From positions 80,546 to 144,545 of the IMG/VR virus record IMGVR_UViG_3300030616_000506: 64,000 nucleotides of DNA; one strand, written 5' to 3'. How positions within the stretch are numbered: the stretch's first letter is position 1; each line of letters starts with the position of its first letter. The position numbers and the translations under genes are program-made. This stretch comes from a virus. Positions 4,040-53,429 of this stretch are shown here, in pieces. Below the pieces are notes generated by a model that did no database searches, was not told the origin of the DNA, and saw nothing but the letters and a program-made list of their open reading frames with translations.

Positions 4040-4404
4040 CTCACCAATAATTTATCTAGTAATATTTCTATATCAGTTTCATAAAATTTAAAATCTCTAT
4101 ATCCTATCCATTTACTATTTTCTTTTTTATCTAATATACCATTGTATCTTTTAAATTTACAATAGTGTAAATTTTGATTTATATGTTGCCAAGTGTAATG
4201 GATGCCACATCCTTTATTAAATAAGATTCTTTGGGTATGTAATAATTCTTTATTTGGATGAGATCTTTTTATTAATAACCATTCATCATTCTCATTTAAT
4301 ATTTCAAATTTTGTATCCTTTAACCAACTTGGATGATATGTTTCTTTATAATCTTTGATATTCATTTTTTCCACTGAGCGGTTATTCCTGAATAAAAACT
4401 CCAT
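4030..4404 (-). CDS. Hypothetical protein ending in a variant of the shared C-terminal tag (DKLLVSCI); true start probably 4365
   Basis: ORF track; C-terminal motif comparison. Confidence 0.55.
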   Translation of the reverse strand: MEFLFRNNRSVEKMNIKDYKETYHPSWLKDTKFEILNENDEWLLIKRSHPNKELLHTQRILFNKGCGIHYTWQHINQNLHYCKFKRYNGILDKKENSKWIGYRDFKFYETDIEILLDKLLVSCI

Positions 4405-4709
4405 CTATTTAGAAATTCTTCTGGAGATATAGTTCTATCATCAACATATATTTCTCCACCAGGTTTACCAAATCTTAATTCGTGATATTTCACACCCCAA
4501 TCTGATAATTGTTTTTTAGTTTCATCTAGCCAGTCTCTTTTATGTACTGATCCTCTAGCAGTAAATATAGTTATATGTTCTCCTGAGTCATATAACTCAT
4601 TGATTTTCTTTATGATATCTTTTCTAGGAGTTGACTCCAAATACTCCCATGTATCAAAGTCATATGTTGTATCACAAATAGTTCCATCTAAATCAAATAC
4701 CCATCTCAT
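4362..4709 (-). CDS. HAD-superfamily phosphatase (capsule biosynthesis phosphatase-like)
   Basis: FDLDGT motif I, FTARG, GKP, YVDD motifs; start at MRWVF overlapping the upstream stop. Confidence 0.88.
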   Translation of the reverse strand: MRWVFDLDGTICDTTYDFDTWEYLESTPRKDIIKKINELYDSGEHITIFTARGSVHKRDWLDETKKQLSDWGVKYHELRFGKPGGEIYVDDRTISPEEFLNRWSFYSGITAQWKK

Positions 4710-5638
4710 GCTTTCTCCACAAATAATTCTGATCCTAATTCCCACCAATCTTTAGGTATTGTATCCTTATTTCGTTGTATAATATTACGAACATTCTCAT
4801 TATACTTAGCAACATGCATTAACCATTGTGGTCTATGGTAATCAAATATAACTGTATCTTCAGGTAACTTACAATTTTCTATAAGATCAGTAGATGGGAA
4901 TTCTCCCTTCCTAAAATGACCTATAGGGTTAAAATTAAATTTATTATTCAATATTCTTATCTCCCATTCTGCATTAAATATTAATCCAGTAAATGCAAAT
5001 TCATTTGGATGAATTCCTAATTGTATCCATCTCTCACATATCTTAGTTAGAGGAACCCAGGTTGCATTTATATAGGGTAAATGTTTACTCCTAACTGCAA
5101 TAACACCAGTAGCTAATAGAGGTCTACCTATTTCCTTATTTTCAACGTATGGAATTTTTATATCAGGCATCTTAATCCCCATAGCTTTATAGATATTTCT
5201 CCATACTCTAGTCTCCATATTGTCATTCTTTATTATTCTTCTATTCTCAGATTGAATGATAATATCAGATTCATCATCTAATATCTTTTTAAATTCATCT
5301 AGATGTTTTAAGAATAATACATCTATTTCAGTTTTAATTACCCACTCTTTATCTGTCTCTATTTCAAAACAGTGAAACATATACTGACATCTTGACTTTA
5401 AATTTTTAAAGGGAGGTTTCTTATATATCTTAGTTGGTACTTGTTTCTGTATCCATTGTAAAGTTTCATCAGAATCATCTCTATTAGTAGTTATATGTAA
5501 TATACAACCATCTGGAATATTGTCTCTTAATGTATCTATCATCATTCTTAGTTGTGGATTAAGATATTCTGCTTTATCAAAACTTATTGTTAAGTCGAAA
5601 TTAGTTTGCATATTAGATGCTCCAAAGTTAAATGCCAA
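4706..5638 (-). CDS. GT-A fold glycosyltransferase (GT8-like)
   Basis: KTEIDVLF (DxD variant), TGVI, NEFAF, late DYH motif; operon context. Confidence 0.6.
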   Translation of the reverse strand: MAFNFGASNMQTNFDLTISFDKAEYLNPQLRMMIDTLRDNIPDGCILHITTNRDDSDETLQWIQKQVPTKIYKKPPFKNLKSRCQYMFHCFEIETDKEWVIKTEIDVLFLKHLDEFKKILDDESDIIIQSENRRIIKNDNMETRVWRNIYKAMGIKMPDIKIPYVENKEIGRPLLATGVIAVRSKHLPYINATWVPLTKICERWIQLGIHPNEFAFTGLIFNAEWEIRILNNKFNFNPIGHFRKGEFPSTDLIENCKLPEDTVIFDYHRPQWLMHVAKYNENVRNIIQRNKDTIPKDWWELGSELFVEKA

Positions 5639-31061: not shown

Positions 31062-31478
31062 CTACTCCTGTTGAGCCTCAAATTCCTCTTCGTGAGCGGC
31101 TTTATAATCGCTCAATAATTTATCGTAATTTTTCAACACAAATTTGCTAGTATTATTATCATATATTATCTCTATATTATCTCCATACTTTGTAGATTTT
31201 GTATACATTCTATAACCTCCACTCTTACTCCATCTATATACTATCGGAACTTCTCCTCCAATTGCTTGTAAATAACCTTCAACTATCTTATCATTATCAT
31301 TAGGTTCTTTAGTCTCTCTCTTATAGTCACTACTCTTTATTTTATCTCCTGCACCAAAATCTCCATGCATCACAGCTTTATGTCTCTTTAATATTTTTTC
31401 ATCATCACTAGTATAATTACATCTATTACACTTGTACTTTCTCTTATATTTCTTAGCATAATCTTTTAGAGATTTCAT
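31062..31478 (-). CDS. C2H2 zinc finger protein
   Basis: YKCNRCNY...LKRHKAVMH. Confidence 0.6.
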   Translation of the reverse strand: MKSLKDYAKKYKRKYKCNRCNYTSDDEKILKRHKAVMHGDFGAGDKIKSSDYKRETKEPNDNDKIVEGYLQAIGGEVPIVYRWSKSGGYRMYTKSTKYGDNIEIIYDNNTSKFVLKNYDKLLSDYKAAHEEEFEAQQE

Positions 31479-31765
31479 ATTCTTCGCTTCCTTCTTCCTC
31501 TAGCCTTTTTTTTACATTTATGTTTTTTCTTTTTTCTTGTTGCAGGTTTCTTATCCTTTTTTGGAGGTATTATTACTCTATTCTCATTCTTTTTTAGAAT
31601 AACTAGATATCCAGCTATTCTATTTCTTAAGGGTTTACTATTTATTTCTGCTATAGAATCTATATATAGTTTATTAAGATTAAAGTCAGTAGTAATTTTA
31701 TCTTTATGTTTCTTATAAATTTTATCAGCTAATGATTTAACGTAATATTGTCTAACCTTTCCCAT
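31475..31765 (-). CDS. rps17e: Ribosomal protein eS17 (S17e) with basic C-terminal extension
   Basis: MGKVRQYYVK...TTDFNLNK...SKPLRNRIAGY is the archaeal S17e signature. Confidence 0.9.
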   Translation of the reverse strand: MGKVRQYYVKSLADKIYKKHKDKITTDFNLNKLYIDSIAEINSKPLRNRIAGYLVILKKNENRVIIPPKKDKKPATRKKKKHKCKKKARGRRKRRI

Positions 31766-32173: not shown

Positions 32174-32470
32174 TCATAAGGCAATCACCATTAATAAATC
32201 TTTAAGATGTTCTTTATCTCTGATACGATTTATATTAAAGTGTTCTCTTAAATTAAGATAATCTAAATAATCAACTCTCTCACTTGTACCATCTAGAAAT
32301 TTTATCTCTTCTGTTAGAAAATTTGCTATATATTCATGTAAATTACTTTGTACCATTTTAGGATCATATCCCATTTTAGTAACAGTATTAATGGCAGCAA
32401 CAAGTTCATCTACTGTAACTCCACTTGAAGCTGCTATAGTTGACATCTTAACTATTTGTTTTTTATTCAT
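32174..32470 (-). CDS. Hypothetical protein with shared C-terminal tag (LKDLLMVIAL)
   Basis: Start reassigned to MNKKQ at 32470 to remove a 143-bp overlap with RadA; tag motif. Confidence 0.55.
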   Translation of the reverse strand: MNKKQIVKMSTIAASSGVTVDELVAAINTVTKMGYDPKMVQSNLHEYIANFLTEEIKFLDGTSERVDYLDYLNLREHFNINRIRDKEHLKDLLMVIAL

Positions 32471-33509
32471 CACAGAAACCAAAGTCCTTTTTAAGTCTAA
32501 CTGGATATAGCTGATCATCTTGTGGGACATCCGGTCTCCTAAGTAGCTTGATTCTTCTAGTTTCATTTCCCCATCCAGTTTCTGTTTGTAATTTCTTGGG
32601 TGCATCTATAAATTCTAGTGCATACTTTGAATTATAAAGTACAGGATTACCACCATAAGGTTTACCTAGATCTCTACCAAATGGCATAACTGGATTGATA
32701 CTAGCATGATGATTAACAACTACCGCTATATTATATCTAGCCGCTATATCATATAGTTTACCGTATAGTCTCTGCATTAACTCTGCTCTAGAGGGTAAGT
32801 TCTGTGTATTGGATCCTACTGAATCTTTTACTGGTTTAGTGAAAGAATCTATTATTATCATTGAGGTTTCTTCCAACTCCTTCTCCTTAAGTTTAGGAGT
32901 ACAGTTAGTAAACTTTAATGTATATTTACCATTTTTAGATATCTCATCTGTAACTATATATCCAAACAATTGGAACATTTTTTGGTAGGATTTTAATTGA
33001 ATGTCTCCCATTGTATGTATAACTTTATATTTGTCATCTATTGTTTTCTTATCTAATCCCCATCTATCCATAAACTTATACTGAATAGCTCTAACATCAT
33101 ATGTCCTTAATCCTTCTGTCTCTATAAGAATTGTATTGTTTCCTGTTTCAGCTATATTAGCTAAACCTACTTGATGACCAAATAGTGATTTACCGGCAGT
33201 TGGTTCTCCATATATAGAAGTAACTATTCCATAGGGTACTCCTCCTCCAAGTAATTCATCTACCTTATTACATCCAGTTGCTATAAAGTTTAATTTTTTC
33301 TTAACCATTTTATCATACTCCAAATTATTTATTAGATGAATAATATGCTTACAACTCTTTCCTTCCTTACTAAATATATAGGAAGGACAGGTACACCACG
33401 ATCTACAAAGTTCGGAGTCAGCACAGGTTATATATTCCTTACCACTATCTCCTACTATAATAGCTCTGGCTATACCTAGATTATCATATTGTAAGCTCTT
33501 TATTATCAT
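32463..33509 (-). CDS. RadA/RadB-like recombinase ATPase with N-terminal SWIM zinc finger
   Basis: WCTCPS...CKH SWIM; TGCNKVDELLGGG, Walker A GEPTAGKS, Walker B IIIDS, PYGG. Confidence 0.85.
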   Translation of the reverse strand: MIIKSLQYDNLGIARAIIVGDSGKEYITCADSELCRSWCTCPSYIFSKEGKSCKHIIHLINNLEYDKMVKKKLNFIATGCNKVDELLGGGVPYGIVTSIYGEPTAGKSLFGHQVGLANIAETGNNTILIETEGLRTYDVRAIQYKFMDRWGLDKKTIDDKYKVIHTMGDIQLKSYQKMFQLFGYIVTDEISKNGKYTLKFTNCTPKLKEKELEETSMIIIDSFTKPVKDSVGSNTQNLPSRAELMQRLYGKLYDIAARYNIAVVVNHHASINPVMPFGRDLGKPYGGNPVLYNSKYALEFIDAPKKLQTETGWGNETRRIKLLRRPDVPQDDQLYPVRLKKDFGFCDE

Positions 33510-45753: not shown

Positions 45754-47094
45754 TTAATTTCTTTTTGGTAATTCTATCACTTGTCCATAAGGAAAATCTT
45801 TAGAATCTGCTCTCCAATGTCCAGCTACTACCCATAAGACAGGCATATTAACTTGACTTTTAGGAGGAAATGATGTATAACCATCCGTAAAGGCTATAAC
45901 AAATTTAGATTGAGGTTTATTCTTATTAATCCAATCAAATACGGGAATGTGGCTAGTGCCTCCTCCTCCCTTAAGATTCTTACCTATTCTCTCAACTACT
46001 TCAGATGCTTGAGCATTTCTCATGGGATGAATACCATTTACTTGACAATCACAATCTATTACCGTTAAATCAACATTCTTAAAACTATTACATATACTAG
46101 ATATTTCAGATATAAATTCTGCTAATTCTTTTTGACTTATACTTCCTGATGTATCTACTGCTACCATTACATCTATACTTTCCCTAACAGTATCAGGTAG
46201 ATATATTCCTGTGCTATAACTTCTTTTAGATGGTTTAGCCCAAGTAAAATCTATAGGAATTTGATTTGTTATATATCTATAAAGTAATCCTTTCCAATCA
46301 ATATAAGTTTCCATTAATTGTCCAACTACTCTCTCCATACCTGCTGGTAAATCTCCTCTTTGCCTAGCATAAGTGCAAGCATCTACTAAAGTCTTTTTCC
46401 AATCAACTTGTTTATCAGATATCTTCTTACCATTCTTATTACCAGTTCCATTACATTTAGGGCAATCCTTATCTCCTACCTTACCTGTTCCATTACAGTT
46501 ATCACACTTACCATTTTTCTTTTTATCACCTTTACCATCACCATTACCATAGATATGTTTATCAAAACCCTTAACACCATTCTTCTCTAGGTATTTCTTA
46601 ATGGCTTTCATATCCTTTTTAATCTTTTTAGATAGTCCTCTATATAGTTTATCATATACTTCTTCAGATGTTTTCTCAGATGCTTTCTTAATAGTAATAC
46701 CAAATATAGTTATCTCTCCATTATAGGGATTAATAGCATTTTCAGGTAAACTCATACCATCATCTAATAGCATAGAATTAATTACTGTATCTGATGCTAT
46801 ATTAAATAACTCGTGGTTTTTACCCTTACCTCTCTCTAAATGTTCTAATGCACAATGCATTACTTCATGTGCCATTACTCCCTTTATCTGGTCATCTGTT
46901 AGTTTATTTATAAAATCTGAATTAAAATACAGATTACCATACATATCTACTCCTGCTGTTTCTATTTCAGGTTGCTCTATAAAGGTTAAGTGCATAGTTA
47001 AATAACTAAAGAAGGGTTTCTCTTTTTGTAATTGCACTCTAGCCCTTATAAGTTTTTCTTCTGCTGTTAAATCTAGGTTTAATATTCCACTCAT
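45754..47094 (-). CDS. DUF2201-type metallopeptidase-like plus VWA domain protein with inserted DnaJ-type zinc finger
   Basis: TAGVD, AHEVMH (HExxH), NIASD, CDNCNGTG/CPKCNGTG, MIDAS VDTSGS, GGGGT, FTDG. Confidence 0.88.
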   Translation of the reverse strand: MSGILNLDLTAEEKLIRARVQLQKEKPFFSYLTMHLTFIEQPEIETAGVDMYGNLYFNSDFINKLTDDQIKGVMAHEVMHCALEHLERGKGKNHELFNIASDTVINSMLLDDGMSLPENAINPYNGEITIFGITIKKASEKTSEEVYDKLYRGLSKKIKKDMKAIKKYLEKNGVKGFDKHIYGNGDGKGDKKKNGKCDNCNGTGKVGDKDCPKCNGTGNKNGKKISDKQVDWKKTLVDACTYARQRGDLPAGMERVVGQLMETYIDWKGLLYRYITNQIPIDFTWAKPSKRSYSTGIYLPDTVRESIDVMVAVDTSGSISQKELAEFISEISSICNSFKNVDLTVIDCDCQVNGIHPMRNAQASEVVERIGKNLKGGGGTSHIPVFDWINKNKPQSKFVIAFTDGYTSFPPKSQVNMPVLWVVAGHWRADSKDFPYGQVIELPKRN

Positions 47095-47095
47095 A

Positions 47096-47302
47096 TTACA
47101 ACTCCTCTATCATTATTTCCTCTCTTAATTTTTTAGTATCAAAATTTATAGCTATATACTTTGCTATACATTCATATATTTTACCTCTCCTTTCTATTAC
47201 GGGATATGCTTCACAATAGTCATTTCTACAATCCTCTATCGTATTCCAATCTTCTATTATATCTAGTAAATCATCTATCTTTTTCTCTATTTCTTTATTC
47301 AT
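47096..47302 (-). CDS. Hypothetical protein with C-terminal tag (EEIMIEEL)
   Basis: ORF track; tag; lies between AAA and VWA genes. Confidence 0.6.
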   Translation of the reverse strand: MNKEIEKKIDDLLDIIEDWNTIEDCRNDYCEAYPVIERRGKIYECIAKYIAINFDTKKLREEIMIEEL

Positions 47303-47544
47303 ATTGCATACACCATAACTTCCTCTAAAGTTAATTGAAATATTTTATCATCACTATATACAAGTAAATATGTATCAGGATTACCATTTTCATCTGCGTA
47401 TATACATTGAAAGGAATATAGATTATCTACATCTAGAAATCTAATTACCTTACCAACATATACACAACCAAAATCAATTTCTTTTCCTGATATTACCTTT
47501 ATATATTGTCCTATCTCAAGTTTATCATAAGTAATCTTTTTCAT
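47299..47544 (-). CDS. KOW/SH3-like small protein with C-terminal tag (EEVMVYAI)
   Basis: LEIGQYIKV, tag. Confidence 0.6.
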   Translation of the reverse strand: MKKITYDKLEIGQYIKVISGKEIDFGCVYVGKVIRFLDVDNLYSFQCIYADENGNPDTYLLVYSDDKIFQLTLEEVMVYAI

Positions 47545-47548
47545 AAGA

Positions 47549-48694
47549 TTAAGTCAATAGATACTTTTGATATTTTTTGCTAATAGGTTTCCAAGATTTA
47601 AGAGTAGTTACATACTTCTTAAAGGATGAAGGATGTTTATTCTTTGCAAATCTCAAGAGAAGTATAGCAAATTCTGGTTGAATAACATTTGCTATTTGTA
47701 ATACTTTCTCTAGGTTTTCCTTCTTATTATTCATAGCATACCATTCTGCAACCATACCCAATAGAGAATACTTTAAATCCATTTCTTTAATATTGGCTGC
47801 CTTTTCAGGTCTAGCTAATATCTCATTAAGATTAATGTTCTTTTGTAATCTTAAGAAGGATTCAAATTCACTAGCTGCACCAACTCCAACACTAACACAA
47901 GCATATTGATATACTTGTTTTAAATCCTTAACACCAGATATAAGTTTATTACAATACTTACCCCAACTTCTAGGTGTAGGAAATGCTCTCTCATTACTAT
48001 CAGCTTTTATTTTAGGATTTAATAGAGTAGGTCTTTGTATTAAAAAGGATACTATCCTCATATCAATACCCTTCTCTAATGCCCATTCTCCCCAATCATT
48101 CTTACACTCTTGTGTAATATGGGGTATCTTTAATGTAGCATGACAGAATCTATTCTGTAAAGGTCTAGGCAAATCATATACATTTGCTTTATCCTCTATC
48201 CTATTACCAGCTGCTATTAAACCAACACCTTCAGCTAGTGCAACTTCTCCCATTTCTCTATCTAATATTAACTGATAAGCACCAGCCTGTATAGAAGGAG
48301 GAGCTAAGTTTATCTCATCAAAGAATATAATACCCATAGCATTCTTTAATGTTGCTACCAATAACCAGAATGGTATTTTCCATTCACAAGTATCTTTACC
48401 ATTTAAGGATGGTAGTCCTCTTAAGTCACTTGGGTCTAATTGGGATAACCTAATATCCATTAGAAAGAAATACTTTTCAGGATTATCAGCAACTTTATGC
48501 TTCTCTTCCTTTGTAAGTTTATTCCATCTAACATAGATTCTCCCGTGTTTTCTTGCTAATTCTTCAGCCTTCTTGTCCACAGTTTCTGATTTTCCTATAC
48601 CAGTTGCACCCCATATATATAATGGAATGTTAGATTCATAATGGACATCTACTAGGTTTTCTAATTCTTTATGGTCTACTTCTGCTACTGCCAT
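47549..48694 (-). CDS. MoxR/dynein-related AAA+ ATPase (partner of the VWA protein)
   Basis: Walker A GATGIGKS, DLRGLP, Walker B FFDEIN, AAGN, LQNRF, FPTPRSW. Confidence 0.9.
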   Translation of the reverse strand: MAVAEVDHKELENLVDVHYESNIPLYIWGATGIGKSETVDKKAEELARKHGRIYVRWNKLTKEEKHKVADNPEKYFFLMDIRLSQLDPSDLRGLPSLNGKDTCEWKIPFWLLVATLKNAMGIIFFDEINLAPPSIQAGAYQLILDREMGEVALAEGVGLIAAGNRIEDKANVYDLPRPLQNRFCHATLKIPHITQECKNDWGEWALEKGIDMRIVSFLIQRPTLLNPKIKADSNERAFPTPRSWGKYCNKLISGVKDLKQVYQYACVSVGVGAASEFESFLRLQKNINLNEILARPEKAANIKEMDLKYSLLGMVAEWYAMNNKKENLEKVLQIANVIQPEFAILLLRFAKNKHPSSFKKYVTTLKSWKPISKKYQKYLLT

Positions 48695-48705
48695 ATATTT
48701 TTCTC

Positions 48706-50979
48706 CTATAATTTTTCTACCATTACTTCATCATTAGTCATAATCTTAAATTGATAAGAATAATAAGATTCATCATAAGGTTTCCAAGTAGAGTGTCTTC
48801 TATCAATAAAAGCTACTTTGTATTCTACCCTTTTCTTACAAGAACTATCCCATTTAACTATTCCTTTAATCTTTCCTATCTTTCCAGTATCCCAACCCTT
48901 TATTATCCTTACATATTGTCCTAATTTACCTTTTTGTTTCATAATCTCTCCACTAATATTTTATCCTTTATCTTTTTCCTCAATATTATGTAATCCTTAA
49001 ACTGCGTATAGAAACTTATTAGAAAACAATGTAGATGATACTTATCATATCTAGGTCTACTTGAATGCCCCCAATATTCTCCTGCTAATAATCTAACTAC
49101 ATCATCTCCCTCTTTAATAGTTTCTCCACAATATTCACAATTACACTCTAGATGCTTATACATCTTTCCTAACTTTATTTCGTGTGAAGTCATAATTTAT
49201 CAACCAACATCTTTTCTTTCCATTTTTCTAGAGAATCTTTATCTAATTCTAAATATAATTGTTCAATACAATAACTACATATTCTTTTATGTGAATATCC
49301 CCATTGAGTTCTATATTCAAATGATATCCTATCTATATCTTTAGGAATAGTTTTACTACATACTGAACATACTTGTCTACCATTTTCTCCCTTATTTAAT
49401 CTATTTCTATATCTATCACTCATTACAATTCATCCAATATCATTTGATTAACAATCTCCTCCTCAATTAAGGGTGTCAATTCAACTTTACCTAATCCATT
49501 TTGTTTGATTTCTCTTAATAAACTTAAACCTTTACTTAAGGATAATACGTGTCCTTTATTTTCCACATATCCTCCATTTCTTATTATCTTTGAAATATGA
49601 TAGCACAATAATCCTCCTCTTTTTCTAAAGAAGATTAAACAACCACAATAAGATTTAGCATAAGCTATTGCTTCTCTAAACATAGCTCTCTTTATAGTTC
49701 TAGTTTCTCCCCATCCTATACTGAAGTATTGTATTCCACAATCTCCTAATACATCTCTAACGGTTGTTGTATCCTCAACATCAGGCATCTCTACTAAACT
49801 CTCCTTTAATCTTAATCTATAAAACTTTTTAAGTTTATTTAAATATTTAGTTTCCATTCTAGCAAATTCACCTATACCATTTTCAAAGTATAATGTAGTT
49901 ACATCATCTTCTGTCTTATAATAGGTAGGTCTAGTGCAATAATAATTTCCTATATCAAACCCTTTATATTTACTAACATCATCAGGTTTATATTCTATAT
50001 AGTATATCTTTCTTTTTTTATCCCAATAATGAGGTTTACTATACAACTTACATTCACTCATTATATCACTCTATAATCCTCATCACCCTCAATAAAGTAA
50101 TAAGGTTTATTTCTATCTTTAAAGTAGATTGTGTATCTACCATCTTCTCCTTTTAATATATTTGTTACTTTTCCTTTTTGTCCATTACTAACTTCTATTT
50201 TATCTCCAACTTTTACCATTTTATAATGCCTCTATAAATGCTTCTTTCTTACTAATCTTTTTAATCTCATTTCTATACCAATAACCTTGAAACTCATAGT
50301 TCTTACCACTGGATATATCTCCTCTAGGATTATAATTAACTACATATCTTTTTCTAAAAAATCTTCCTTTTTCTATAGCTACTATCTGCCCAATCTCATT
50401 AGCTTTATGAACTAATGTTCCATAAACATTAAATTCTTTTTTAACTCTAACGTAATCTCCTATCTTAAGCATTAAATCACTTATCGAACTTACAGTTTCC
50501 TTTATATACCTTACTTAAGCAAATATTATCATTATCCTTATCAGCATAATCACAATACTTACATAGCTTTTTATCTATTTTTGCTTTCATAATTCATCCT
50601 CTCTTAATAATCTAATCTTATTAAATATAATATGTTTATATTCAGATGCCAATGATTGTGCATAGTATATATCATTAAATTTATAAACTATAATCTCACA
50701 CTCAGTATCATCTTTAGAAATTCTAGACCAATATATATGTTTATCTTTCATATTTCCATCCTATAATTTACTTATTAATGCCTTATCCAAATCATCTTGA
50801 GTAGCATCTCTAAATTTATACTGTTCATTATCTACCTCTACACCTACAAATTCATCTCCATTATAATTAAAGATGACCATATATTTTTTAGAGTTATTAG
50901 ATTTTCTACATAAGAACTTCCATTCATCTTCTAAATTTGGAATGTAAGCTACCATTATTTTCTCTTTAGATACGGACAA
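48706..50979 (-). other. Second cluster of tagged ORFs (48706, 48939, 49190, 49423, 50221, 50761)
   Basis: Termini MVEKL, LVERL, LVDKL, ILDEL, FIEAL, LISKL; two carry CxxC...CxxC/HxxC zinc fingers. Confidence 0.75.
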
Positions 50980-51773
50980 TCATATCTCTCCTTATATTTA
51001 ACATTAGTTATTCTTAATAAATCTTTAGGTTTATTCAATTCTAATAAAGGTGTTTTACTAAATGAACAACCATAAACTTTACCTTGCTCATTTATACTGA
51101 TTATATCTCTACCAAAATGACAAGGCTTATCCCAACCTTGATATTTATTTTGAGTTAATATCATATTAGTTAAATCATCTACATAGAAATGTTTATACTT
51201 AAAGGTTGGTGCATAATATAATGCTCTAAACTTTAAGATATCAGGAGCTTTCCAATTCTTTGGATATAATGCAAATACTCTTTCTATCTTTGCACTATTG
51301 AAAAAGTAATGCAGTAAACTTAAAAATGATTTAGGAGTATTTAACCAGTAATTATTTATTAGAAAATTACAACCAACTCTAGTATATTTACTTAACTCTC
51401 TAGTAGTCATACAGTAATTATGTATATCTTGATTAGATTTTATTTTATGTTCATCAAAGGATACACTAACCATCTCTATATCATCAACATAATACTTCAT
51501 AGGTAATGTTCCATTAGTAGTAACATTAGTAATTAATCCATATTTTTTAGCTTCCCTTGAGAAATCTCTCACAAACTCTGGATACATAAAAGGCTCACCA
51601 CCACCTAAAGCTACTTGTGGTGTAAGCTTTGCTAGATAAGGTATTAATTCCTTAAACCAATTATGAGATTTATTATTATCTGTTTTCTTTGGTCTATAAC
51701 AGAATTTACAATCCATATTACAATCAGTTGTAAAGTGTAATGCTATAACTTTATATCTTTTTTCCTTCATCAA
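50955..51773 (-). CDS. Radical SAM enzyme with SPASM/Twitch-like C-terminal Cys motif
   Basis: CNMDCKFC, GGGEP, TTNG, VSVSFD; PC...ISINEQGKVYGCSF...CP. Confidence 0.9.
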   Translation of the reverse strand: MMKEKRYKVIALHFTTDCNMDCKFCYRPKKTDNNKSHNWFKELIPYLAKLTPQVALGGGEPFMYPEFVRDFSREAKKYGLITNVTTNGTLPMKYYVDDIEMVSVSFDEHKIKSNQDIHNYCMTTRELSKYTRVGCNFLINNYWLNTPKSFLSLLHYFFNSAKIERVFALYPKNWKAPDILKFRALYYAPTFKYKHFYVDDLTNMILTQNKYQGWDKPCHFGRDIISINEQGKVYGCSFSKTPLLELNKPKDLLRITNVKYKERYDCPYLKRK

Positions 51774-52063
51774 TATCCTATCTCCAATTTTTTTGCAAAT
51801 GGTAATTTATAAAGATATTCTAAAATCTTTTCCTCACTATTAAAGGGTGCATCTCCCCTAATTTCTATCCAAGATACACTACCTAAACTTGCTGTTTCTA
51901 TATAGGTATCATACCACCAATCATATTCCTCTATGTTATCTTCATCAGCATACTTATCAAGTAATAACAAATATCTATATAATTCTTCCTCTTCTTTATT
52001 GTTTAGATTATCTGTTCTAACTCTCATAGTAGCTTCAGAACAATTTGGGTTTAAATCAATCAT
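51770..52063 (-). CDS. LNPNCSE-motif protein 1
   Basis: MIDLNPNCSE; PFAKKLEI end shared with 52350. Confidence 0.75.
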   Translation of the reverse strand: MIDLNPNCSEATMRVRTDNLNNKEEEELYRYLLLLDKYADEDNIEEYDWWYDTYIETASLGSVSWIEIRGDAPFNSEEKILEYLYKLPFAKKLEIGY

Positions 52064-52353
52064 AATAATTCCACCATTAATTTATTCTTATCTATCATTT
52101 CTTTATAACGATTTTTAATTTCAGCTAAATCTATTAATCCTATATTTTGTTTTAAGGTTAAATCATCTATATATCCATCATACTTTTTTATTGATATAGG
52201 TTTAAATATATAACAATTAGTTAGCATACCTGAATACTTGCTATATCTATATCCTGTAATTTTAATTATATTTCCATTAATCTTATTCTTAAAATATCTA
52301 TTAATATATTTAGATTTTGAATTCGGAAATGATTTATAGGTAGAATTCATCAT
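52060..52353 (-). CDS. Hypothetical protein with C-terminal tag (KLMVELL)
   Basis: Inserted between LNPNCSE genes. Confidence 0.65.
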   Translation of the reverse strand: MMNSTYKSFPNSKSKYINRYFKNKINGNIIKITGYRYSKYSGMLTNCYIFKPISIKKYDGYIDDLTLKQNIGLIDLAEIKNRYKEMIDKNKLMVELL

Positions 52354-52589
52354 ACATATTCCTGCTCATTTCTAATCTTTAATTTTTTAGCAAAGGGTGT
52401 ATTCATAATACATTCCTCTATCTCATCTGTCATATCCTCTACTCTAGCTACTGCATAATCTTTACAACAATCTATTTCATCAAACATAGAAAGATATTTA
52501 TTCATTTCCTCTCTTTCCTTTTTGGTTAAATCATCATACATTATGTAAAGAAATGTAACCCATTCGGAACAATTAGGATTGAGCATCAT
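52350..52589 (-). CDS. LNPNCSE-motif protein 2
   Basis: MMLNPNCSE; PFAKKLKI. Confidence 0.75.
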   Translation of the reverse strand: MMLNPNCSEWVTFLYIMYDDLTKKEREEMNKYLSMFDEIDCCKDYAVARVEDMTDEIEECIMNTPFAKKLKIRNEQEYV

Positions 52590-52947
52590 CTACATCATTC
52601 CCCATATGTCTTCTATTATATACATCTTTAAATGGTAATCCATAACAATTACAAAAGTGTTTCATCTCTTTAGTATATTCCTCTCTAGACCAACCACTTG
52701 TTCCTGATGTTGTCCAATGATTTCTATTAGAGTATATCCCAAAGTAATCTAGGAATAAATCTAATTCAGGTTTTTCAAAGTAAGGTCTATAATCTAATCC
52801 CTTACTATTAGGACTATACAATGCTCTCTCATAATCCTCTTCACTCATTATTCTTTTAAAGATTTTTAATTCATCATCTGTCATATCCTTTAATATTTCT
52901 ATGGGTATCTTATATACTGCTTCAGAACAGTTAGGATTTAAATCTAC
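52573..52947 (-). CDS. LNPNCSE-motif protein 3 (motif lies in frame upstream of the ORF-track ATG; start codon non-canonical or lost)
   Basis: GTA GAT TTA AAT CCT AAC TGT TCT GAA (VDLNPNCSE) at 52947-52921 is in frame with ATG 52884. Confidence 0.6.
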   Translation of the reverse strand, partial: VDLNPNCSEAVYKIPIEILKDMTDDELKIFKRIMSEEDYERALYSPNSKGLDYRPYFEKPELDLFLDYFGIYSNRNHWTTSGTSGWSREEYTKEMKHFCNCYGLPFKDVYNRRHMGNDVDDAQS

Positions 52948-53429
52948 TTTATATTTACATCTGGTCTTTTTAATAAGCTATCCCTCTTCTTTTTACTCTT
53001 TTTACTTTGATAATCTTTAATAGGTTTACAACCATTATGAACCCATTCTTCATATTCATTAGCACTACCACCATCCTGTCCATATACTTCTCCACTTAAT
53101 TCATCCTGTATCTTTTTTAATGTGGGAAATAACTGATGTTGACAATGCTGATGTCCATCTATCCTTATACCATCATCTCCATAACCATTATCCTCACCAT
53201 CTCCATATATATGTATAGTTGCTCCATTTTCATAATCAGGCATATTAGGATTATCTTTATCAAATACTACTGACATCTTATCTCCTGAATTATCCCATTC
53301 ATATATATCATTACTAGGAATTTCTATATAATATATTCCTAAATCTTTAAGCATCTCTATAACTTGCTCTTTAGTATAATCATCAGGTAATCTCAACACT
53401 AACTCACTACAATTTGGATTTAATAGCAT
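52944..53429 (-). CDS. LNPNCSE-motif protein 4
   Basis: MLLNPNCSE. Confidence 0.75.
   Translation of the reverse strand: MLLNPNCSELVLRLPDDYTKEQVIEMLKDLGIYYIEIPSNDIYEWDNSGDKMSVVFDKDNPNMPDYENGATIHIYGDGEDNGYGDDGIRIDGHQHCQHQLFPTLKKIQDELSGEVYGQDGGSANEYEEWVHNGCKPIKDYQSKKSKKKRDSLLKRPDVNIK

Follow-up and report, generated by a model that had tools for sequence, protein, structure and literature searches.

The locus considered here raises a simple question: what does it mean that the same seven residues, LNPNCSE, recur in four small and largely different proteins, all encoded within 1.7 kb upstream of one gene for a radical S-adenosylmethionine (SAM) enzyme? The DNA in question, called the window throughout, is a stretch of 64,000 nucleotides that forms the final 64 kb of the 144.5-kb virus record IMGVR_UViG_3300030616_000506. 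A sequence-only reading of it had proposed that a virus-encoded radical SAM enzyme serves several substrates through a short shared site, and the two-way co-occurrence of the motif, referred to as the tag below, and the enzyme in other genomes supports this proposal in outline. Our own estimate is a probability of about 0.55 that the enzyme and the tagged proteins form an enzyme-substrate pair, with a radical modification made at or near the tag Cys, and that the two would together constitute a two-part module of archaeal viruses and mobile elements. Since the same pairing is also found in other archaeal viruses and in a small number of archaeal genomes, and no described family matches it, it probably represents an undescribed protein-modification system.

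The recurrence itself is beyond what chance would give. Six-frame translation of the 64 kb contains exactly four copies of LNPNCSE, each of them encoded on the minus strand within 52034-53423, and the whole 144.5-kb genome holds no fifth; a degenerate DNA pattern for the motif finds four matches in the window, where 100 shuffles give an expectation of 0.00. The sequence-only reading had thus counted and placed the copies correctly. At five of the seven tag positions the copies differ by synonymous codons (TTA/CTC, CCA/CCT, AAT/AAC, GAA/GAG and, for Ser, AGT versus TCT/TCC), which argues that selection on the tag acts at the amino-acid level and not on a DNA or RNA signal. Copies at gene starts, as seen in the window, are of course also what one would expect if the repeat were a promoter, a ribosome-binding site or a recombination site that merely reads as LNPNCSE. 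However, the codon data, including the use of both AGT and TCN for Ser, contradict such an explanation, the peptide is kept in genomes from 26% to 57% guanine-plus-cytosine (GC), and in-frame copies also lie in the interior of long proteins, so that we assign a nucleic-acid signal a negligible probability.

The sequence-only reading had put itself at risk on one point, namely that proteins bearing the motif should not commonly occur without the radical SAM gene, and it came through this trial in both directions. Starting from the enzyme, a protein search returned 102 homologs, including proteins from metagenome-assembled genomes labelled by their depositors as Sigynarchaeota, Hadarchaeales and Methanospirareceae, and DNA was fetched around the homologs from this search and from two locus scans. 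Every interpretable locus reached in this way (L001 to L011, about nine of them independent) has one to four tagged open reading frames (ORFs) within 20 to 4,700 bp of the enzyme, over a range of 26-57% in GC and 30-85% in enzyme identity. Viral loci carry several families of tagged genes, while archaeal cellular loci carry one, the domain of the 161-residue tagged protein of the window (Group A), often in two to five tandem copies with a tag at the start of each; Group A is also the sole tagged domain family that the window and these cellular loci have in common. Across the loci no protease or exporter is conserved, and the radical SAM gene alone is. The collection of phage genomes in GenBank gave no blastn or tblastn match, and an IMG/VR protein scan with a single enzyme sequence gave none either; the same scan with the enzyme alignment yielded only two loci, as did a contig scan. 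As a separate observation, the archaeal cellular loci encode DUF6882 (PF21813), either fused to the tagged protein or directly after it (L030, 12088-12648; L031, 8340-9698), and this domain may be a third recurrent component there.

Does the tag, conversely, predict the enzyme? A 45-column tag profile, searched against 1.84 billion representative proteins, matched 151 protein clusters at E<=1e-3, while a word-index search with the tag alignment recovered training members only, its 8,000 candidates being swamped by chance word sharing. All three of the profile-matched proteins that were looked up have a radical SAM gene (277-280 codons) 0-2 kb upstream, and one of these three contigs also encodes an archaeal histone and TFIIB. 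What is more, the sole tag matches in two whole archaeal genomes of 5.0 and 4.7 Mb adjoin the enzyme. The tag is present in one of 301 Asgard genomes, and the enzyme clade in that same genome and on one contig of 4 kb, which stops 190 bp past the gene; to judge from these genomes, cells therefore have the module only rarely and sporadically, which is what a mobile or viral element would show. A scan of metagenomes with the tag DNA pattern returned 120 loci, 24 of them with a credible in-frame tag: 15 have the enzyme, six are shorter than 2.8 kb and three (6.7-10.5 kb) have no enzyme gene. In other words, the enzyme is present in 15 of 18 informative loci, and in none of the 96 loci with a chance match. 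By these counts, the link between tag and enzyme appears strong, though on pieces of large viral genomes the two do not always lie as close together as in an operon. The same kind of pattern scan over IMG/VR gave 18 loci, with real tags in two (L023 and L029) and out-of-frame chance matches in the others.

Two observations made along the way concern more distant arrangements. Namely, in L114 a distant radical SAM gene (4269-5186; 75 bits to the family profile, 25% identity) lies 1.7 kb from a tagged gene (2528), so that more than one subfamily of enzymes may make use of the tag. Secondly, the related viral contigs L076 (4991-5463) and L130 (2748-3238) have a tagged gene of 86-92 codons followed by a conserved gene for a Cys/His-rich protein of 69 residues. 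No enzyme gene lies within 5 kb upstream and 1.7 kb downstream of the tagged gene in the former, or within 2.7 kb upstream and 5.6 kb downstream in the latter.

What exactly is shared? The sequence-only reading spoke of a seven-residue site at the N-terminus, and both parts of this description need to be adjusted. A common motif there is, but the 176 tags in profile-matched proteins extend over 12 residues, [LI]-x-P-N-C-S-E-x-[VTI]-x-[RK]-[LIF], in short form [LI]-x-P-N-C-S-E-x-V-x-R-[LIF], with V, R and L conserved at +6, +8 and +9. The first Asn of the original motif is replaceable: the residue before Pro is N in 140 of the 176 (the tags with the NxxC unit, N-P-N-C), Y in 15, Q in 8 and I in 7. 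P-N-C-S-E, on the other hand, is invariant in all 23 tags that were reached through the enzyme. As to placement, the tag is mostly found near the N-terminus (125 of the 176 begin within the first 10 residues), after a short and variable run of residues, but 33 begin beyond residue 25, and internal and repeated copies occur, some profile-matched proteins having two to five. Its carriers range from 45 to 983 residues. The tagged proteins of the window have no match in Pfam, PHROGs, NCBIfam or PADLOC, the tag itself falls outside all Pfam, NCBIfam and PHROG families, and a literature search did not find the string NPNCSE.

The structural context of the tag was modelled for the Group A protein. 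In the AlphaFold model (predicted local distance difference test, pLDDT, 85.7; predicted template modelling score 0.83), confidence is low (pLDDT below 50) for residues 1-7, up to and including the Cys, and the first strand spans residues 10-13. In this one protein, then, residues 1-7 of the tag would be an exposed flexible tail and V-x-R-L would form the first strand of the domain. Given this low-confidence tail, the tag is unlikely to be a buried structural element, and the model gives no support to the motif being part of a known fold, an outcome that the sequence-only reading had named as part of what would refute it. The Group A fold is that of a generic ferredoxin-like alpha/beta sandwich, and the PDB holds no significant match to it (best Foldseek E 0.06); VIA-align Z scores to generic ferredoxin-like domains are at most 5.8 and ESM Atlas features at most 0.86.

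One may still ask whether tag, strand and helix together are an ordinary metal or cofactor motif of a single ancient N-terminal module, to which the enzyme is linked only indirectly, for instance through synthesis of the cofactor. Conservation does run into the first strand (V+6, R+8, L+9), a helix follows in all groups, and the weak matches of the generic Group A fold include metal-binding HMA domains (Z 4.5). That said, these structural matches are at noise level, and sites of the HMA type lie in the beta1-alpha1 loop and not before beta1. The residues through the Cys are modelled as disordered and not as a folded site, while no sequence relationship among the groups is left past the first strand. 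Such a shared module strikes us as quite improbable.

We now turn to the enzyme. PF04055 matches it at 8e-13 (49.3 bits against a cut-off of 29.5), and in an alignment of 40 homologs, to which all statements on conservation in this paragraph refer, C22 and C25 of the CxxxCxxC motif are invariant, C18 is kept in more than 90% and the SAM-binding motif GGGEP is invariant. The sequence-only reading was also right about Cys residues near the C-terminus: C218, C236 and C266 are invariant and arranged as C-x12-G231-x4-C...C, with a nearly invariant His (H219) directly after C218. Its label of a SPASM-like protein, in contrast, holds by half. Namely, the hairpin signature of Twitch domains (truncated versions of SPASM), CX9-15GX4C, is present (C218-x12-G231-x4-C236) together with C266, and the AlphaFold model of the enzyme (pLDDT 95.1) has strands at 224-227 and 232-234 between the Cys residues. 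The seven-Cys pattern of SPASM domains is missing, however, as only the three Cys are conserved after the core, CX2CX5CX3C does not occur and a Pfam scan gives no SPASM match. Because the hairpin signature is present but the second SPASM Cys cluster is not, the sequence and the model place the enzyme among Twitch-like proteins, with a single predicted auxiliary cluster site, and not among full SPASM proteins. Ranked by VIA-align, with alignments that span residues 1 to approximately 270, the structural neighbours of the enzyme are SuiB (Z 21.5; root-mean-square deviation 2.9, 251 residues aligned), SkfB (Z 20.2; 244 residues aligned, enzyme residues 1-269), PqqE (Z 19.4), the viperins and BlsE (Z about 19), anSME (Z 17.4; 245 residues aligned), CteB (Z 17.3) and MoaA (Z 17.0). 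By its modelled fold, the enzyme is closest to the peptide-modifying SPASM/Twitch maturases.

Profile searches give a different ranking. No NCBIfam model comes near its cut-off, the best being viperin NF038283 with 64 bits against a required 180, over enzyme residues 9-122 only. The PADLOC model pVip reaches 66 bits over positions 1-116 of its 257, and the related WgkB maturase model 33 bits against a cut-off of 650. Membership in the viperin or pVip family was considered and rejected, as the scores are far too low and confined to the N-terminal core. Viperins nevertheless matter for one alternative to an enzyme-substrate pair, in which the tag is a docking handle only: the tagged proteins would be adaptors, regulators or partners that complete a cluster, with the tag Cys as the fourth ligand of the auxiliary cluster, and the true substrate, for example a nucleotide, like that of viperins, or a host molecule, would be found elsewhere. 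That the N-terminal half of the enzyme scores best against viperin models and that viperins are close structural neighbours would both sit well with this, as would the conservation of only three Cys for the auxiliary cluster, while several tagged proteins per virus could be alternative specificity subunits. However, the viperin matches cover nothing but the generic radical SAM core, and viperins are without the three invariant C-terminal Cys. Furthermore, two to five tags per chain are hard to read as stoichiometric subunits, and an invariant five-residue core in a disordered tail is more typical of a substrate at an active site than of a docking surface. For these reasons, we think it unlikely that the tag does no more than dock.

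If enzyme and tagged proteins are indeed enzyme and substrates, how might the module work? It would consist of a compact radical SAM enzyme with one Twitch-type site and of a portable 12-residue tag placed before many unrelated folded domains. As the enzyme has no leader-recognition domain, the exposed tag would be bound directly, much as anSME reads the sulfatase motif. The thiol of the invariant Cys would then approach or ligate the auxiliary cluster, for which there are three conserved Cys ligands, whereupon a 5'-deoxyadenosyl radical would take hydrogen from a neighbouring tag residue and leave a covalent change. In this manner, the virus would apply a single chemistry to at least four different small proteins. 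A complex prediction for the enzyme, the 161-residue tagged protein, SAM and two 4Fe-4S clusters gave a score of 0.01 and was run without controls; we count it neither way.

Our leading guess for the product, made by analogy, is a four-residue thioether in x-P-N-C that joins the Cys to the residue at i-3. The pair Pro-Asn is a classic former of beta-turns, and a turn at this point would bring residue i and Cys i+3 together, as in the products of NxxcB. The guess draws on this turn, on the three-Cys cluster and on the NxxcB precedent. Namely, for NxxcB, as for the sactisynthases, it has been proposed that an auxiliary cluster chelates the substrate Cys before the C-S bond is formed; NxxcB links the Cys to the beta-carbon at i-3, where Ala, Gln and Asp are also tolerated (PMC9389541). 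In MoaA, in turn, the substrate binds at the open Fe site of an auxiliary cluster held by three Cys (PMC9012708). The variation among N, Y, Q and I before the Pro is consistent with the tolerance of NxxcB at the acceptor position. A strict Asn acceptor at i-3, which we had also entertained, was softened on account of the Y, Q and I found there. Formylglycine from oxidation of the Cys, an epimer or a product of backbone chemistry may be formed instead. A more far-reaching version, that of portable covalent tagging in which the 272-residue enzyme modifies the 12-residue Cys tag, for example to a four-residue thioether staple or an aldehyde, whatever domain the tag precedes, and thereby matures a set of host-takeover proteins, is conceivable, but we would put it at somewhat less than even odds.

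Several points weigh against the enzyme-substrate interpretation. First, gene neighbourhood by itself does not tell a substrate from a binding partner. Second, the conserved piece in leader-dependent systems for peptides that are made ribosomally and post-translationally modified (RiPPs) is usually the grip of the enzyme and not the site that is altered. Third, the invariance of P-N-C-S-E among the 151 profile matches is partly circular, the profile having been built on P-N-C-S-E. Fourth, the His next to C218 could be a fourth cluster ligand and leave no open Fe site, and the frequencies given above for the i-3 residue weaken a specific Asn-Cys link without refuting it. Finally, there are the three tag-bearing viral contigs of 6.7-10.5 kb without an enzyme gene; the link may hold at the level of the genome rather than the operon, or it may not be absolute.

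How does the proposed pair compare with known systems? Its closest functional analogue is anSME, its closest structural relatives are maturases of the SuiB/SkfB type and its closest motif analogue is NxxcB. The anSME enzymes (AtsB, anSMEcpe) likewise act on whole proteins through a short motif that includes the target Cys, and have no leader-recognition domain. Their motif, C/S-x-P/A-x-R, is however found in one homologous family, the sulfatases, whereas here P-N-C-S-E stands at the start of unrelated domains. Indeed, the tag reads C-S-E-x-V, with neither Pro or Ala at +2 nor Arg at +4 from the Cys. What is more, anSME enzymes have two fully ligated auxiliary clusters (SPASM) in approximately 370 residues, as compared with three conserved Cys for one cluster in 272 residues. 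SkfB, SuiB, CteB and PqqE give the best whole-chain structural matches and have the CX9-15GX4C hairpin motif in common with the enzyme, and SkfB and CteB form Cys thioethers. Unlike the enzyme studied here, these four possess a leader-recognition domain at the N-terminus, and their substrates are short precursor peptides destined for cleavage and export, while the predicted substrates here are folded proteins of 80 to over 900 residues with no conserved protease or transporter nearby. We also considered whether the tagged proteins could be RiPP precursors, and rejected this in view of the size range of the carriers, the well-folded Group A model and the same want of a conserved protease or exporter. 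Viperins (pVip) resemble the enzyme in their N-terminal core profile scores, in length and in their occurrence in viruses and defence islands, but they leave its C-terminal half, with the three invariant Cys, unmatched and have no tagged partner proteins. As for NxxcB, the N-P-N-C of the tag is an NxxC unit and the tolerance at i-3 is matched, but NxxcB belongs to another enzyme family (SPASM, larger, bacterial, streptococcal) and acts on a peptide with a repeated motif, so that the likeness lies only in the motif and in a plausible chemistry (PMC9389541). Kaur et al. 2020 described, in vWA-MoxR systems, radical SAM genes next to peptides whose C-terminal motifs are conserved, an arrangement other than that of the present tag (PMC7159879), and the radical SAM genes mentioned in the literature on archaeal viruses are unrelated to this enzyme. 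The system is set apart from maturases and tagged substrates of a known kind by its range in archaeal viruses, its compact Twitch-type enzyme, the Cys tag on folded proteins and the many predicted substrates per genome.

RiPPs are familiar substrates of radical SAM maturases, and so are a few dedicated proteins, sulfatases and glycyl-radical enzymes among them. In the present case, many folded proteins unrelated to one another appear to be served by a single compact enzyme, by way of a short portable tag, and this in archaeal viruses, in which we know of almost no post-translational chemistry. If confirmed, the modification would be a new protein modification, and the enzyme and its tag would be a small pair of possible practical use for site-specific modification of proteins. 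It would also provide a functional handle on dozens of 'dark' archaeal virus proteins, because everything that carries the tag would belong to one pathway.

The arrangement of tagged domains differs between genomes. In L038, the Group E ortholog is the second tagged domain fused within a two-tag protein of 181 residues, where the window has separate genes; P0124 and the two to five repeats of the archaeal cellular loci are further cases. Such fusion and fission would fit either a modification tag at domain starts or a processing site. In the latter case, cleavage at or near the Asn-Cys junction, whether through radical backbone chemistry or through the action of a separate protease, would free the domains or trim the N-terminus and expose Cys or Ser. 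The short and variable residues before the tag are compatible with this, and a gene for an SprT-like metalloprotease lies 0.5 kb upstream in the window. Against this, the radical SAM gene, and no protease, is conserved across the loci, radical SAM cleavage of a peptide bond at such a site has no close precedent, and the conserved x-V-x-R-L strand belongs to the folded domain and fits recognition of the domain start equally well. Processing, too, we hold to be rather improbable, and modification at or near the tag Cys remains our preferred interpretation.

The features of the locus are collected in the table.

Coordinates of the radical SAM gene, the tagged genes, the tag copies and two host-informative genes (positions in the window)
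Feature	Coordinates	Strand	Remarks
Radical SAM enzyme	50955..51773	-	272 aa from TTG 51773; 271 aa from ATG 51770
Tagged protein, Group D, 97 aa	51770..52063	-	starts MIDLNPNCSEATMRV; PFAKKL-type tail
Untagged 97-aa ORF within the chain	52060..52353	-	ends ...LMVELL
Tagged protein, Group E, 79 aa	52350..52589	-	starts MMLNPNCSEWVTFL; PFAKKL-type tail
Tagged protein, Group F	52573..52947	-	tag VDLNPNCSEAVYKI at 52921-52947; first ATG 52884; no canonical start upstream
Tagged protein, Group A, 161 aa	52944..53429	-	starts MLLNPNCSELVLRL
Tag copy 1 (LNPNCSE codons)	53403..53423	-	degenerate DNA pattern; Leu codon at 53423
Tag copy 2	52921..52941	-	degenerate DNA pattern; Leu codon at 52941
Tag copy 3	52563..52583	-	degenerate DNA pattern; Leu codon at 52583
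Tag copy 4	52034..52054	-	degenerate DNA pattern; Leu codon at 52054
Ribosomal protein eS17 gene	31475-31765		PF00833, 48 bits vs cut-off 22.8
RadA-like gene	32463-33509		beside eS17 gene

The genes of the cluster run into the radical SAM gene through overlaps of 1-17 nt, the stop of Group D overlapping the start of the enzyme. The sequence-only reading had recognised this chain, but it did not mention the untagged ORF inside it, for which Pfam and PHROGs give no family match. It had also held that the tagged proteins diverge past the motif and that only two of them share a PFAKKL end, and this is what we find: with the tag and the first strand removed, the 97-residue Group D and the 79-residue Group E proteins are still alike (28% over 78 residues, including the PFAKKL-type end), Group E being a weak paralog of Group D, and every other pair is unrelated in sequence. 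Group D orthologs adjoin the enzyme in L001, L002, L003, L005 and L038. As for the untagged ORF, some relatives of N-terminally tagged proteins (in L001, L002 and L003) end in ...MVEIL or ...MVDLL, similar to its own end, and therefore a single protein can bear both an N-terminal Cys tag and such a C-terminal tail.

Three of the four tag copies start 2-3 residues after an ATG. The Group F copy, VDLNPNCSE, lies in frame upstream of the first ATG of ORF 52573-52884, and, just as the sequence-only reading had it, is not part of that ORF as called; no in-frame ATG, GTG or TTG precedes it. At the junction (52941-52966), the gene upstream of this copy ends AAT ATA AAG TAG, and a -1 slip of the P-site Lys-tRNA (A_AAG to AAA) at this stop would read GTA GAT TTA AAT..., that is V D L N P N C S E. 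The result would be a two-domain, two-tag fusion, and fused two-tag proteins are known from the other genomes studied here. The junction is identical in the close relative L029; L038, unlike the window, has a 65%-identical ortholog followed by other genes, while in L002 the Group F ortholog starts on its own and has the tag in its interior. Judging from the nucleotide sequence, this copy may reflect programmed frameshifting at A_AAG_TAG, a non-canonical start or decay.

Finally, the wider window tells us about the host. Nearly every gene is on the minus strand, GC is 25-32%, and the genes include those for a family B DNA polymerase (PolB), a ribonucleotide reductase and a Rad51/RadA-like recombinase. 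To our knowledge, the eS17 protein family is restricted to archaea and eukaryotes. Because the virus encodes eS17 along with the RadA-like and PolB genes, its gene content indicates that it infects archaea and rules out a bacteriophage. At 45754-48694, which is 2-5 kb from the cluster, there are a DUF2201 metallopeptidase-VWA gene and an ORF of 381 residues without a Pfam match. The viral relatives L002 and L003 have genes of 380-381 residues, the length of this ORF, at a similar offset from the enzyme. Since no counterpart of the pair was seen in the archaeal cellular loci, it is probably not part of the tag and enzyme module. Towards the end of the contig (60001-64000), GC falls to 16-19%.

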